From: a virus
Lineage: Duplodnaviria > Heunggongvirae > Uroviricota > Caudoviricetes
Direction: 5' to 3' (one strand)
IMG/VR virus record: IMGVR_UViG_2529292979_000027
Length of the DNA: 6,365 bases
Numbering within the stretch: position 1 is the stretch's first letter; each line of letters starts with the position of its first letter. The position numbers were made by a program. Positions 3,001-6,000 of this stretch are shown in pieces.

Positions 3001-6000
3001 AGCGTTTCACGGCGGTAATCAGGGCGGTGGTGCTGGCGACCAACAACAACCCGATGATATTCACCGAACGGGCCGGAGGCGTGGCACGTCGTCGGGTTAT
3101 TTTTCGCTTTGACAATATCGTTAGCGAGGCAGAAAAGGACAAGGATTTGCCGGAGAAGGTCGCGGCTGAAATCCCTGTGATTATCCGCCGCTTGCTGGCT
3201 AATTTTGCTGACCCTGAAAAGGCACGGGCTTTATTACTGGAACAGCGCGACGGTGATGAAGCACTGGCGATAAAGCAACAGACAGATCCGGTTATTGAGT
3301 TTTGCCAGTTCCTGAATTTTCTGGAGGAAGCGCGCGGCCTGATGATGGGTGGCGGTGGCGATTCCGTGAAGTACACGACCAGAAACAGCCTTTACCGCGT
3401 CTATCTGGCGTTTATGGCATACGCAGGAAGAAGCAAGCCGCTAAACGTGGCTGATTTCAGCAAGGCCATGAAGCCAGCGGCGAAAGTTTACGGACATGAA
3501 TATATTACGCGAAAAGTTAAGGGAGTAACGCAGACCAACGCAATTACAACGGATGATTGTGACGCGTTTTTATAATTTTTTGTAAAAGCCCTCTACCCCA
3601 TCTACCTGAATGAAATAAACGCATATTATTCAACATGATAAGTGGGTAGAGGGATAGGTAGAAGGCTAATAAAACCCCTCTACCCCCTCTACCATGATTA
3701 AGGTCGTTTGTGAGGGGCGGGTAGAGGATGGGTAGAGGGCCACGAAAAGTCCTCTACCCATCTGAAAGCCGCGCCATTACTGACCTGAAAGATGATTAGG
3801 TAGAAGAGGTAGAGGAGGTGCACCACAACCTAAAACTTTTTAAACGAGGGGGGTAAAAATAAATGTGCATACATCAAAATCACTTAACAAACATGCCGAC
3901 CGAAAACATGAATCAGGGGCGACAAATGACCAAAATGCGCAGAGACAGAACACAGCAAAAATATAAAGCGTTAGACATGACAGAGCTTTCCCTAAAGGTG
4001 GCAATCAAAGTTATAGACCGCCACACACGGGAAGGATACGCGAAGGAGAATCCCGAACTAATAAGCGCATTCATGACCACGGCGGCGGCAAACTTTGCCA
4101 CGCTGACAGAGCGGGAGATTGCAGAAGCGGAACAGGTAACAACCATCAACGTTAAAAGCACTGGAGAATAACCGAAGGAGTGAGCACATAGCCGGAGCAA
4201 TCCGGCTTTTTTTCGATCTCTCATATCTTAAAAAATGGTTGATTAATGATAATCTATCGAAAATACTGATTATGCGATGATAAGTATCAGGAGGAAACAA
4301 AGTGGAAGAGATAAAGCAAAGCGCTACCGTGATGATTGATCACGAGATCCTAAACGAGCTTAAAAAACTTCAATTCGATGTTATTCGCCGGATGAATGAA
4401 GCTGGTATATACGGCAGAGCCGCCACGCCAACAATAGGTCATCTTGCACGTGTGCTGTTACGCGAAAGACTGGGCATTGCAACAGGTGAGGCATAACAAA
4501 TGGCTATCACAGAACGCGAGGCAAGCATCATTAAGGCCATTGGCGAGGAAACAAGAGACACTATAGCGCCATTGATGGAAAAGATCGCAGAGCTTGAGAC
4601 ACGAATAAACAAGCTGAGTAATGAAGTTGAAGGCCTGATCTCGTTACTCGGTGAGCAATGACATGGGGGGGGAGTGTTCCGGCCGGAAAGTCGATCACCC
4701 TGGACACCGCCCCCCGTCTCATTCGTAGAAAATTTTGCTTTTCAAAAAAGTTACACGAAAAGTTACACCCCCTCAAAACGAGGTTTTTGCATGGCATTAA
4801 CGACCAAAAAAAAGCGGTTTGCTGATGCGTTATCAAGGGGCGCAAATCCCACGGAAGCCGCTATACATGCGGGATACAGCGAAAAGACCGCAAGGGTTAA
4901 AGGCTGGCAGCTATCCAACGATCCTGAGGTGAAAAAGTATCTTAAGGCTGTAACTTCTGATGTAACTTTTCAGGTTACAAAACCGAAAAAAGTTACAAAG
5001 AAAGTTACCGAAAAAGTTACACCGGAACGGGCATCAATTAACACCATTGAGATGATGGATAACGGCCTACCCGACCCCATCAAAGCAATGGGCAGGATAC
5101 TGATTGACAACATGGACACAGATCCAAAACTGGCTTTAGATGCCGCGTTTAAGCTGGCCCAGTTCACCCACCGCAAGATCGGCAGCATTGGGAAAAAAGA
5201 GGTTAAAAAACTCAATGCCGCTAGTGTCTACTCAAATCGGTTCCCCATCCCTAAGCCACCAACAGACTTAAAACACTGAGGTAGCGAACTATGAGCGAAT
5301 ACATCACAGACCCTATTGATGTACTCACGGAAATCATGAACGACAAGCAGCAGTCGACCGAAATACGGTTACAGGCCGCCGCTGTTCTGATGCCATATTT
5401 TCACGAAACACTAAACCCGTGCTTCCAGGAGGAGGAAGAAGATGATCTGTAAAAACATGAAAGGCGTGTCAGCAGTTCGCGCCGCCAGCGTGCTGGCATC
5501 GTGTAAATTTAGCCATGCTGACGCTATAGAGATGACGAAAAGAAATGATCCGGCAGTATCGAAATTTCTTGAAAAATCCATCGTCAACAGAATGACTACG
5601 GATAACATGCCGTCGCTGGTGGCAGAGCCGATAGTAAGAGAGCTTGGCGAGTATATTTTTTCGCAGTCTGTACCAGGCAAGCTAATCAGCAGCGCGCTTA
5701 ATCTTCCGTTTGGCGCAAAATTGCATTCAATATCAGGCAAGGGTAGTAAATGGCTTAAAGAAGCCGAAGAAATCCCTGTCAAAGAGGGAGAAGTAAACGA
5801 AAGTGCGCTAAAATTGTGCAAACTTGGCGCTATTGTGATGCTGAATAACGAGCTAATCAAATTTAGCACCCCTGGTACAAATTCAGCGATCAGAGACTTG
5901 ATCACATCGGAATCGGTGAAAGAAATAGATAAAAAATTTCTTTCCAGTGATCAGGAGGTGGCTGGCGTATCCCCTGAGGGCGTGCTTAATGGTGCTGATG

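Follow-up and report, generated by a model that had tools for sequence, protein, structure and literature searches.

Three small genes at a possible junction between the replication unit and a late, helper-exploiting operon in a small PICI-type satellite of EHEC E. coli

The stretch of DNA analysed here (6,365 nucleotides, hereafter the window) represents a small satellite of the Gram-negative PICI type, derived from EHEC E. coli, and showed 100% identity to NZ_CP040314. The island measures ~8.5 kb, is bounded by an integrase, and is inserted between cspD/yljB and clpS. Searches against Pfam and PHROGs showed that AlpA (PF05930), a D5_N/DUF5906 (P4/D5-type) primase, TerS, and a capsid homologue are all encoded, and CCTCTACC/GGTAGAGG repeats were read off the sequence at positions 3580-3830. 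With PICIs defined by an integrase, AlpA, a primase or replicase with a downstream iteron origin, a single gene direction, a size of ~8-20 kb, and the lack of lysis and tail genes, the element has the gene content of a Gram-negative PICI. Satellites of this family occur in ~4% of complete E. coli genomes and are common in EHEC. An Rfam search of the window yielded no RNA family match. The cf-PICI EcCIEDL933 was considered as an identity for the element and rejected, as it is a different, 15.4-kb element. Downstream of the repeats, the following features were found.

3926..4171, + strand: ORF1, 81 aa, member of phrog_1231 and last gene of the replication-side unit (profile match, PGAP start)
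4190..4213, + strand: intrinsic terminator that ends the replication-side unit (7-bp GC-rich stem 4190-4196/4201-4207, 4-nt loop, U7)
4239..4267, + strand: proposed late promoter, inferred by alignment (-35 TTGATT 4239-4244, 17-nt spacer, -10 AATACT 4262-4267)
4289..4294, + strand: AGGAGG ribosome-binding site, read from sequence, 7 nt before the GTG of ORF2 at 4302
4302..4496, + strand: ORF2, 64 aa, first late-zone gene and proposed small DNA-binding regulator (selection, position, AF2 model)
4500..4661, + strand: ORF3, 53-aa helical mini-protein coupled to ORF2 (family, portal-extension homology)
4665..4734, + strand: cos-like core (G8 ... TGGACACCGCCCCCCGTCTCA ... AGAAAA), common to the HNH-terS intergenic region of Stx-type prophages
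4748..5020, no strand assigned: seven AAGTTAC repeats around and within the terS start, candidate sites for the satellite's own TerS
4791..5279, + strand: satellite TerS, 162 aa (PF03592, phrog_641), 46% identical to prophage TerS
5291..5452, + strand: 53-aa ORF matching the C-terminal part of the TerS family (phrog_641 positions 89-125, E 3.5e-7)
5442..6365, + strand: capsid homologue (PF05065), aligning to prophage protein residues 291-625 with 24% identity

ORF1, ORF2, and ORF3 are all annotated as hypothetical proteins by RefSeq/PGAP, Pfam, NCBIfam, and PADLOC gave no family for any of them, and PDB sequence searches with the three proteins, both as single sequences and as profiles, gave no match. 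A defence or toxin-antitoxin component was rejected as an identity, with no TA family found in Pfam/NCBIfam and, in PADLOC, only a trivial coiled-coil match to LmuB (E 0.012). RgdR, the LEE regulator, was rejected as one of the three ORFs, as it corresponds to the 99-aa DUF4222 gene at 1525-1824. Rpp proteins, which comprise ~144-153 aa and carry a winged-helix domain that mimics lambda TerS, were also rejected as an identity: the sizes of ORF1-3 do not fit, there was no PDB sequence match to such a protein, and the island has its own TerS. A preliminary description of the region had recognised no motif in the three ORFs, a statement superseded by the family membership of ORF1 and by the similarity of the ORF3 N-terminus to a phage portal extension.

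For ORF1, the preliminary description gave the longest open reading frame, 3863..4171, which encodes a 102-aa version. The ORF is present and its start was moved to 3926: PGAP places the start at this ATG, in the 102-aa version the match to phrog_1231 sets in at residue 22, and the frame of the extension is not kept, because immediately ahead of 3926 relatives show a gap of 16 nt, a length not divisible by three. These comparisons make ATG 3926 the most likely start. ORF1 matched phrog_1231, a family without known function, over profile positions 1-78 of 83 (E 1.8e-46), and its homologues fell into 168 clusters, mostly from E. coli/Shigella. It is 73% identical to the gene that follows pri/ori in EcCICFT073, the model Gram-negative PICI (Fillol-Salom 2018, PMC6092414; 2019, PMC6739421). 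In EcCICFT073 and in the related island L030, ssb overlaps the stop of the ORF1 homologue. The position after pri/ori, with ssb overlapping the end of the gene in EcCICFT073, indicated that ORF1 belongs to the replication side. Its family occurs in PICIs with quite different packaging modules, and ORF1 has no part in the packaging story. These results showed that ORF1 is a conserved PICI gene located after the origin and ahead of the terminator. Its AF2 model consists of three helices (pLDDT 69), for which a Foldseek search against the PDB returned nothing significant. Because ssb is translationally coupled to ORF1 in relatives, ORF1 may act with the replication/ssDNA module.

The terminator was picked up by a pattern scan, and its fold had a dG of -12.5 kcal/mol (z -4.05); the pattern alone is common, with 3 found vs 1.8 expected in the region. 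A non-homologous hairpin with a U-run occupies the same position in L006, L008, L011, and L012, hairpin dG values in four other divergent islands were -11.6, -12.5, -8.5, and -4.5, and EcCICFT073 has the identical terminator hairpin. Scan, fold, and equivalent hairpins in other islands back the terminator as first described. For the promoter-like region, a strict sigma-70 consensus scan found no promoter, TTGATT-17-AATACT being below threshold, while alignment of four other islands placed -35 boxes (TTTACA/TTGATC/TTGATC/TTGTTG) and -10 boxes (AATACT/AACACT/AACACT/AACAAT) at the same sites with a spacer of 17. The promoter call rests on this comparison and not on statistics, because the relaxed pattern was picked after the sites had been seen. 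Because the -10 box is weak, control may in fact lie with an activator, either AlpA or a helper factor, and AlpA-driven read-through of the terminator is possible. The AGGAGG ribosome-binding site and ORF2 behind it were present as previously noted. A layout of terminator, promoter, AGGAGG, and coupled ORF2/ORF3 recurs in at least six divergent islands, and comparison thereby supports a predicted split of the region into two transcription units.

Between the window and the L004/L005 alleles, 25 nt of ORF2 differ, 19 of them synonymous, with 4 conservative amino-acid changes; this substitution pattern clearly points to a coding sequence under strong purifying selection. P0127/P0129/P0130 are homologues of ORF2, whose identity falls to 34-48% in the course of divergence. 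ORF2 opens the late zone, after terminator and promoter, in the window, L004, L005, L006, L008, L011, L012, and ~20 further contigs. A 68-aa gene of EcCICFT073, located upstream of c1499, belongs to the same family (hhalign 94.8%, E 4.9e-8) and is also first in the late zone, in an island with lambda-type late genes. Downstream of ORF2, relatives carry terS, a portal gene, or a tape-measure-like gene, or proceed straight to the capsid homologue. This variable cargo indicates that the role of ORF2 is not bound to one structural protein. A tblastn search of 50,697 phage records gave no usable relative of ORF2, phage YYZ-2008 contained none, and PHROGs gave nothing significant.

The AF2 model of ORF2 (pLDDT 84) shows an extended basic N-terminus (residues 1-13) followed by two helices (14-33 and 45-57). 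Neither a Pfam search with 8 family members (E<=10) nor a PDB search with the family profile gave a match, and Foldseek returned nothing significant, with a best E of 2.4 in the PDB and 1.1 in BFVD. The structure-prediction check suggested at the outset provided models for ORF1 and ORF2 and no significant structural neighbour for either. Comparison by hhalign of the ORF2 family with the Pfam-validated Arc/CopG/Mnt/ParD/RelB/omega families found nothing and is uninformative, since these controls also missed each other; with the island's own YlcI/YnfO protein there was no match either. A ribbon-helix-helix strand in the ORF2 model could pair only in a dimer, and the AF2 model is a monomer. ORF2 may be a small dimeric DNA-binding protein with a ribbon-helix-helix-like layout. 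As the first gene of the operon it would set or limit expression from the late promoter, a gatekeeper that persists irrespective of the helper type to which the late genes correspond.

ORF3 begins with ATG 4500, 3 nt past the ORF2 stop, at the place given in the preliminary description, and its family shows constraint at the protein level. Its frame is intact, and start and length are conserved, in at least five lineages with 42-60% identity. The C-terminal EVEGLISLLGE (last 11-12 residues) is identical in every homologue found; in L008 and L012, two loci detected without recourse to ORF3, it is unchanged in the face of 5-9 synonymous differences. ORF2 is adjacent to ORF3 in every locus with ORF3. 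Together, these data showed that ORF2 and ORF3 are real genes, subject to selection and closely coupled, with which the late zone invariably starts, and the conservation across related islands on which the preliminary description had staked its proposal was found. Its description of ORF3 as coiled-coil-like agrees with the sequence, to which leucine-zipper entries match only weakly. Scans of representative genomes confirmed no locus for ORF3, for which a degenerate DNA pattern matched nowhere either, and the divergence among ORF2 alignments was too great for the related-locus scan. The GenBank label "antitermination protein NusG" carried by ORF3 homologues is unsupported: NusG has NGN and KOW domains and ~180 aa, whereas ORF3 has 53 aa and no NusG/KOW match in Pfam/NCBIfam. 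RefSeq now labels it hypothetical.

In BLASTP of ORF3 against the prophage portal protein (E 1e-6), both alignments begin at the N-terminus, and hhalign gave 83% probability (E 9e-6). The portal match was found in four of the five ORF3 family members, with an HMM score of 21.8 bits vs a maximum of 6.0 in 2000 shuffles, and three PHROG families of portal protein were among the weak matches of ORF3, all in register. ORF3 residues 3-42 align to residues ~455-500 of the 861-aa portal of YYZ-2008 (phrog_2271), in which the Pfam domain PF04860 covers residues 54-382; this portal core domain is absent from ORF3. Island L011 has, where ORF3 would be, a gene for a portal core with 64% identity to that of the helper. 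In these alignments, the N-terminal ~42 residues of ORF3 showed homology to the segment right after the core of a helper-type portal, a homology drawn from a targeted comparison over ~30-45 residues of helix-prone sequence. A tblastn search with ORF3 of 50,697 phage records gave no usable match; the similarity is invisible in a whole-database search because it is too short for that search space. Portal homology could be an evolutionary relic that is silent on the present function of ORF3.

Further downstream, AAGTTAC has 8 matches in the window vs 0.53 expected, 7 of them at 4748..5020, and islands without terS bear phage-type GTTAAC repeats instead. The 53-aa ORF at 5291..5452 is conserved in L006 and L011; BLASTP found no match between it and the TerS of the window, to which it is linked only via the family profile. 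The capsid homologue has no counterpart to the protease and scaffold region in the 645-aa capsid protein of the helper, which in the prophage has a Peptidase_S78 domain at its N-terminus. At 36-48% identity to that of the window, capsid homologues are less conserved than the ORF3 tail, and covariation between the tail and the capsid is uninformative because the capsid is too divergent. The cos core, TerS, the capsid homologue, and ORF3 each match Stx-type lambdoid prophages, and by sequence the late genes match those of long-tailed Stx-converting lambdoid phages. ORF2 and ORF3 were originally held to head a packaging transcription unit. They do lead a unit that contains the cos-like site together with terS and the capsid homologue; with a cargo that varies among islands, the term general late zone suits this unit better than packaging operon.

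The region can be read as the place where the replication unit of a small PICI-type satellite meets its late, helper-exploiting operon; with the roles proposed for ORF1, ORF2, and ORF3 included, this reading stands somewhat short of an even chance. According to the mechanism proposed, ORF3 would be a helper-derived mini-protein that binds to the helical extension in the helper portal or assembles together with it. Its conserved C-terminal tail would then touch a second, highly conserved partner, and head assembly or DNA packaging would be biased towards the satellite. A bolder version, which is unlikely to hold in full, makes ORF3 a portal-vertex piracy factor: a 53-residue stand-alone copy of the post-core helix that inserts into or caps the C-terminal extension of the helper portal while its tail recruits satellite or packaging components, with ORF2 as a dedicated PICI late-operon regulator across helper types.

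Alternatively, ORF2 and ORF3 might form one two-part regulator of the late operon, in which ORF2 binds DNA, ORF3 acts as a coiled-coil co-repressor or anti-repressor, and the portal similarity is a trace of origin only. Consistent with such a pair, the genes are tightly coupled (separated by 3 nt in the window and by 10 nt in L008, overlapping in L006 and L012), are neighbours wherever ORF3 occurs, and come first in the operon behind a conserved promoter block. However, ORF2 occurs without ORF3 in L011 and EcCICFT073, and the ORF3 tail is kept while ORF2 drifts to 34-48% identity, which is unexpected for a mutual interface. This alternative, too, is improbable.

The truncation of the capsid homologue, which aligns only to residues 291-625 of the helper protease-scaffold-capsid protein, might instead call for a small internal scaffold or size-determination partner, similar to CpmB of SaPI, that replaces the missing scaffold region. 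ORF3, which is short and helical, has a conserved C-terminal tail, and accompanies the capsid homologue wherever a locus is long enough to show both, could be such a partner. This proposal is quite unlikely: ORF3 showed no similarity to the capsid-scaffold protein of the helper, its homology being to the portal extension, L011 has a capsid homologue without ORF3, and capsid homologues are far less conserved than the ORF3 tail.

Direct interference with the helper, in which ORF1 and/or ORF2 block helper TerS or late transcription as do SaPI Ppi or PtiA, would fit their location after the origin and before terS, where SaPIs keep such genes (PMC6739421), and the lack of phage relatives of ORF2. 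Both families are, however, also present in EcCICFT073, which exploits lambda-type helpers via Rpp, and neither protein resembles solved structures, a set expected to include RppC. With the post-ori genes of EcCICFT073 expressed one at a time, c1503 was the only one to inhibit lambda (PMC6739421), which argues against the ORF1 and ORF2 families as stand-alone interference factors, at least vs lambda, on the assumption that both were among the genes expressed, as the main text of that paper gives no list of cloned genes. Such interference is decidedly unlikely. The portal-extension homology of ORF3 fits the helper-interaction role suggested for the small genes in the preliminary description.

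ORF3 as a decaying, functionless fragment of a captured helper portal gene would account for its portal-extension homology and for the portal core still present at the ORF3 position in L011; in the current view, PICIs acquire late genes by capture and subsequently lose them (PMC10111431). The intact frame of ORF3, with start and length kept across five or more lineages that share 42-60% identity, the tail maintained under synonymous change, and the translational coupling to ORF2 make decay very improbable. A toxin-antitoxin-like addiction pair, in which a small DNA-binding antitoxin (ORF2) precedes a toxin (ORF3), resembles type II systems in gene order and coupling and is barely credible for a pair that matches no TA or defence family, is always at the head of late genes and never alone, and has as its second member a 53-aa helix with portal-extension homology.

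Control and use of the late zone in Gram-negative PICIs is largely obscure beyond AlpA and Rpp. ORF2 represents an uncharacterised family that comes first in the late operon of PICIs, whether of lambda type or of Stx-phage type, and is a candidate late regulator. ORF3 would add a mini-protein derived from a helper portal extension; to our knowledge, no described satellite factor targets the portal vertex. Since its cos core, TerS, capsid homologue, and ORF3 match long-tailed Stx-converting phages, the satellite could affect the yield and spread of Stx phages.

Like the window, operon I of SaPIs (ppi, ptiA/ptiM, cpmA/cpmB) has small satellite-specific genes in the interval from the origin to terS, of which some are regulators and others act on helper assembly. 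It belongs to another lineage, its genes are not known to resemble the window ORFs in sequence or fold, and its regulation differs from that of the AlpA-driven, unidirectional island studied here. We know of no small gene of SaPI operon I that copies a portal segment. The YYZ-2008-type 861-aa portal resembles ORF3 in the segment from residue 455, which aligns with ORF3 residues 3-42. ORF3 differs in having no portal core, repeats, or C-terminal domain, and its conserved C-terminal tail has no equivalent in the phage portal.

Ribbon-helix-helix repressors (Arc, CopG, omega, antitoxins) share with ORF2 a small size, two helices preceded by a basic N-terminal arm in which residues alternate, and a place as first gene behind its own promoter. 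In ORF2, helix A is ~8 residues longer than in the classical proteins, the inter-helix loop, at ~11 residues, is longer too, and ORF2 has no profile or structure match to ribbon-helix-helix proteins or to any DNA-binding family. EcCICFT073 differs from the window in its lambda-type late genes and in Rpp, which retargets helper TerS; the window has its own TerS, a cos core of HK97/Stx-phage type, and ORF3, and is without Rpp, ssb, and perC. The two islands share the gene order int-alpA-...-DUF4222/RgdR-primase-ori, an ORF1 homologue (73% identity) followed by the same terminator hairpin, and a late zone in which a gene of the ORF2 family comes first and precedes a capsid homologue, and EcCICFT073 also pirates a cos site.

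The compared stretch of the window, 3580-4800, was 100% identical to E. coli strain MA11 and at least 98.5% identical to approximately 20 further listed complete genomes, mostly of EHEC strains (for example O157:H7, O103:H2, and O121). In genome NZ_CP076232, the window lay within an integrase-bounded island of ~8.5 kb, with cspD/yljB on one side and clpS on the other. AlpA, the primase, TerS, and the capsid homologue were confirmed with Pfam and PHROGs. Its gene architecture makes the element one of the Gram-negative PICI-type phage satellites (as defined in PMC6092414).

Gene order of the island in NZ_CP076232 (positions are those of the window)
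Start of island: integrase, then a hypothetical gene
1-210: AlpA
345-563, minus strand: YlcI/YnfO family gene, followed by an Icd-like gene and several small genes
1525-1824: DUF4222 gene (99 aa), directly upstream of the primase
1821-3575: P4/D5-type primase, followed by a repeat-rich origin region
3926-4171: ORF1 (81 aa)
4302-4496: ORF2 (64 aa)
4500-4661: ORF3 (53 aa)
4791-5279: small terminase subunit (terS)
5291-5452: 53-aa ORF
5442-6365: capsid homologue

The candidate helper prophage also has a YlcI/YnfO family gene, directly upstream of HNH/cos (L003, 5361-5585). The DUF4222 protein falls within the RgdR family of LEE/motility regulators (PMC3378721); its residues 20-22 are CGD, not RGD, as in the non-activating ED1a variant.

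The preliminary description had placed three small ORFs between the origin and terS, split by a terminator/promoter boundary. This observation was essentially right, with all three ORFs present and each annotated as a hypothetical protein in RefSeq, except for the start of ORF1, which had been set at 3863. A better start is 3926, which is also the PGAP call: the match to the phrog_1231 profile (E 1.8e-46) covers the long version only from residue 22 onward and, since relatives have a 16-nt gap directly upstream of 3926, the longer frame is not preserved. Homologues of ORF1 formed 168 clusters, nearly all from E. coli, Shigella, and Citrobacter, with a highly conserved core (ALD(M/L)TE...GEGYAK.HP.LISAFMTTAAANFATLTEREIAEAEQVTTINVK) and a variable basic N-terminus. 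ORF1 was 73% identical to the gene after pri/ori in the model Gram-negative PICI EcCICFT073. In that island and in a metagenomic contig (L030), ssb overlaps the stop codon of the ORF1 homologue and is followed by perC, the terminator, and ORF2. These arrangements place ORF1 on the replication side, outside the packaging unit; the earlier interpretation, partly right overall, did not hold on this point. The genes proved real and conserved and their positions informative. Because ORF1 is coupled to ssb in relatives, it may have a role with the ssDNA/replication module. The interval with ssb and perC between ORF1 and the terminator/ORF2 spans 4778-5450 in L030 and 4539-5208 in a further locus (L010), and is also found in EcCICFT073; the island of the window lacks both genes. 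Three different replicases accompany ORF1, and it was absent from the Hafnia island (L006) and the metagenomic islands L008, L011, and L012 in the contexts examined. An AF2 model predicted three helices with moderate confidence (pLDDT 69) and gave no structural match. By its profile match, ORF1 is a member of the existing phrog_1231 family, to which no function is assigned.

The terminator proposed downstream of ORF1 was upheld by fold energy and by comparison across islands. It consists of a 7-bp stem, a 4-nt loop, and U7 (dG -12.5 kcal/mol, z -4.05). Such a pattern was by itself not rare (3 found, 1.8 expected), and the stronger case is comparative: four other islands carried a hairpin and U-run 70-100 nt upstream of the ORF2 homologue (dG -11.6, -12.5, -8.5, and -4.5), with unrelated sequences at that position, and EcCICFT073 had a hairpin of identical sequence. 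For the proposed promoter-like region, a strict sigma-70 scan detected no promoter between the terminator and ORF2, but a weaker candidate pair, TTGATT (4239-4244) and AATACT (4262-4267) with 17 nt between them, aligned with equivalent boxes in four other islands; since the relaxed pattern was set only after the sites had been seen, its support is comparative, not statistical. By eye, the non-coding promoter block of L008 and L011 appeared better conserved than the adjoining ORF2 proteins, which were ~40% identical. The AGGAGG 7 nt before the GTG at 4302 and the gap of 3 nt separating ORF2 from ORF3 were read directly from the sequence, as described. Several islands also share a conserved element, TTTCATAAT(C/T)TGCAA(C/T)G, downstream of the terminator and upstream of the late promoter's -35 box (L008 6915-6945; L012 2420-2450; L010 5335-5365; L006 7705-7720). 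This is a possible activator or operator site, and the version in the window is degenerate (TCTCATATCTTAAAA, 4219-4233).

Complete E. coli genomes contained two allele classes, and 220 of 5426 genomes held at least 80% of 4215-4790. Between the classes, ORF2 showed 25 nucleotide differences, of which 19 were synonymous and the rest led to four conservative amino-acid changes; ORF2 is a translated gene under purifying selection. A word-index search with ORF2 returned only clusters above 90% identity, and a full HMMER scan of 1.84 billion representatives yielded three short homologues (36-46% identity); the family is small. Neither a set of 50,697 phage records nor YYZ-2008, a Stx1-converting lambdoid phage, contained a detectable relative. 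In every context, comprising the three homologues and the Hafnia island, which was reached through ORF3 and not ORF2, replicase/origin, terminator, and promoter came first, and the ORF2 homologue was the next gene. The captured late genes that follow it differ.

Gene order after ORF2 or its homologue
E. coli (window and relatives) and Hafnia island L006: ORF3, cos-like site, terS, 53-aa ORF, capsid homologue
L008: ORF3, 798-aa tape-measure-like gene (7407-9803), cos-like site, capsid homologue
L012: ORF3, cos-like site, capsid homologue, lambda-I-like tail assembly gene (4038-4622)
L011: portal-core gene (5881-7146), cos-like site, terS, 53-aa ORF, capsid homologue

An AF2 model of ORF2 (pLDDT 84) showed an extended basic N-terminal stretch and helices at 14-33 and 45-57. 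With such a predicted layout and its place at the head of the operon, ORF2 may be a small DNA-binding regulator of ribbon-helix-helix-like type. Pfam, PDB, and Foldseek gave no support for ribbon-helix-helix membership, and hhalign against ribbon-helix-helix sequences was a test without power. When EcCICFT073 genes after the origin were expressed singly, only c1503 (RppA) inhibited lambda (PMC6739421), which argues against the ORF1 and ORF2 families as stand-alone interference proteins, assuming that both were among the cloned genes, of which the main text gives no list.

Homologues of ORF3 were 42-60% identical and shared an N-terminus, M-x-(I/L)-(T/S)-E-R-(E/D)-x-S, and a conserved C-terminal EVEGLISLLGE. 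This tail was unchanged in L008 and L012, which were reached through ORF2 and are thus unbiased for it; L013-L034 were retrieved by the tail pattern and do not count toward its conservation. Because the tail carried 5-9 synonymous differences in L008 and L012, the constraint acts on the protein. Many GenBank records name ORF3 "antitermination protein NusG"; this name lacks support, as the 53-aa product matched neither NGN nor KOW.

The informative comparison was with a candidate helper, an O157 lambdoid prophage, in which the portal-core ORF is followed after 2 nt by the gene for a 407-aa protein. Residues 3-42 of ORF3 aligned with residues 1-45 of that protein (BLASTP with composition-based statistics, E 1e-6, 44% identity; hhalign, 83% probability, E 9e-6). 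Four of five ORF3 family members matched this N-terminus (E 1e-6 to 9e-5), and the family HMM scored 21.8 bits, with none of 2000 composition-matched shuffles above 6.0. The prophage protein corresponds to phrog_2271 (positions 455-859), phrog_1289, and phrog_8767, which had been among the weak PHROG matches of ORF3, in register. In YYZ-2008, portal core and 407-aa-type protein form one 861-aa ORF, with a Pfam portal domain at 54-382 and the ORF3-like segment from residue 455; in strain FRIK944, where the two are separate, the annotation gives a frameshift (861-aa ORF or split portal: L035 22105-24681, minus strand; L036 32243-34828). In L011, the place of ORF3 is taken by a portal-core-only gene of 421 aa, 64% identical to that of the helper over residues 192-414. 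On these alignments, ORF3 appears to be a stand-alone copy of the helix following the helper-type portal core, with a new conserved tail, and might act at the helper portal vertex. The 407-aa part comprises an N-terminal helix, four or five tandem repeats of ~45 residues, and a weakly carbohydrate-binding-module-like C-terminus.

A cos-like core was present in every island examined and in YYZ-2008 (window 4665-4734; L006 8215-8290; L008 9810-9880; L012 2895-2965; L036 27525-27600), with the layout G-run, ~30 nt, TGGACACCGC.CCCC.TCTCA, AGAAAA; that of the window shared ~80% identity with the stretch between HNH and terS in Stx-type lambdoid prophages. In the phage and in islands without terS (L008, L012, L034), the core is followed by GTTAAC-type repeats, whereas islands with their own terS (window, Hafnia) instead have AAGTTAC repeats, which suggests that TerS recognition sites have been swapped. 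AAGTTAC occurs 8 times in the window (0.53 expected by chance), seven of them at 4748-4766 and 4950-5020; these lie both ahead of terS and within it, and the copies inside the gene encode KVT repeats. Satellite TerS was 46% identical to prophage TerS, most similar in its N- and C-terminal regions and different in the middle. The 53-aa ORF at 5291-5452 matched positions 89-125 of phrog_641, the C-terminal part of the TerS family profile (E 3.5e-7), although BLASTP did not match it directly to the TerS of the window. Conserved counterparts lie in Hafnia (L006 8799-8951) and in L011 (7698-7859), and the ORF may encode a stand-alone mimic of the C-terminal segment of TerS. In the helper's 645-aa protease-scaffold-capsid protein, only residues 291-625, the capsid part, aligned with the capsid homologue. 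The 407-aa protein had homologues in 97 phage records, mostly Stx1a-, Stx2c-, and Stx2a-converting phages. From these comparisons, long-tailed Stx-type phages have counterparts of every part of the late zone except ORF2, and they are the likely helpers.

A literature search of incomplete coverage found no paper describing ORF1-ORF3 or a PICI so matched to Stx phages, and we know of no described satellite factor that is a counterpart of ORF3. The ORF2 family is undescribed and includes one gene of the model island EcCICFT073, the 68-aa gene directly upstream of the capsid gene (hhalign 94.8%, E 4.9e-8, full length). The late genes of this island are lambda-type, and ORF2 thus leads the late zone irrespective of helper type.
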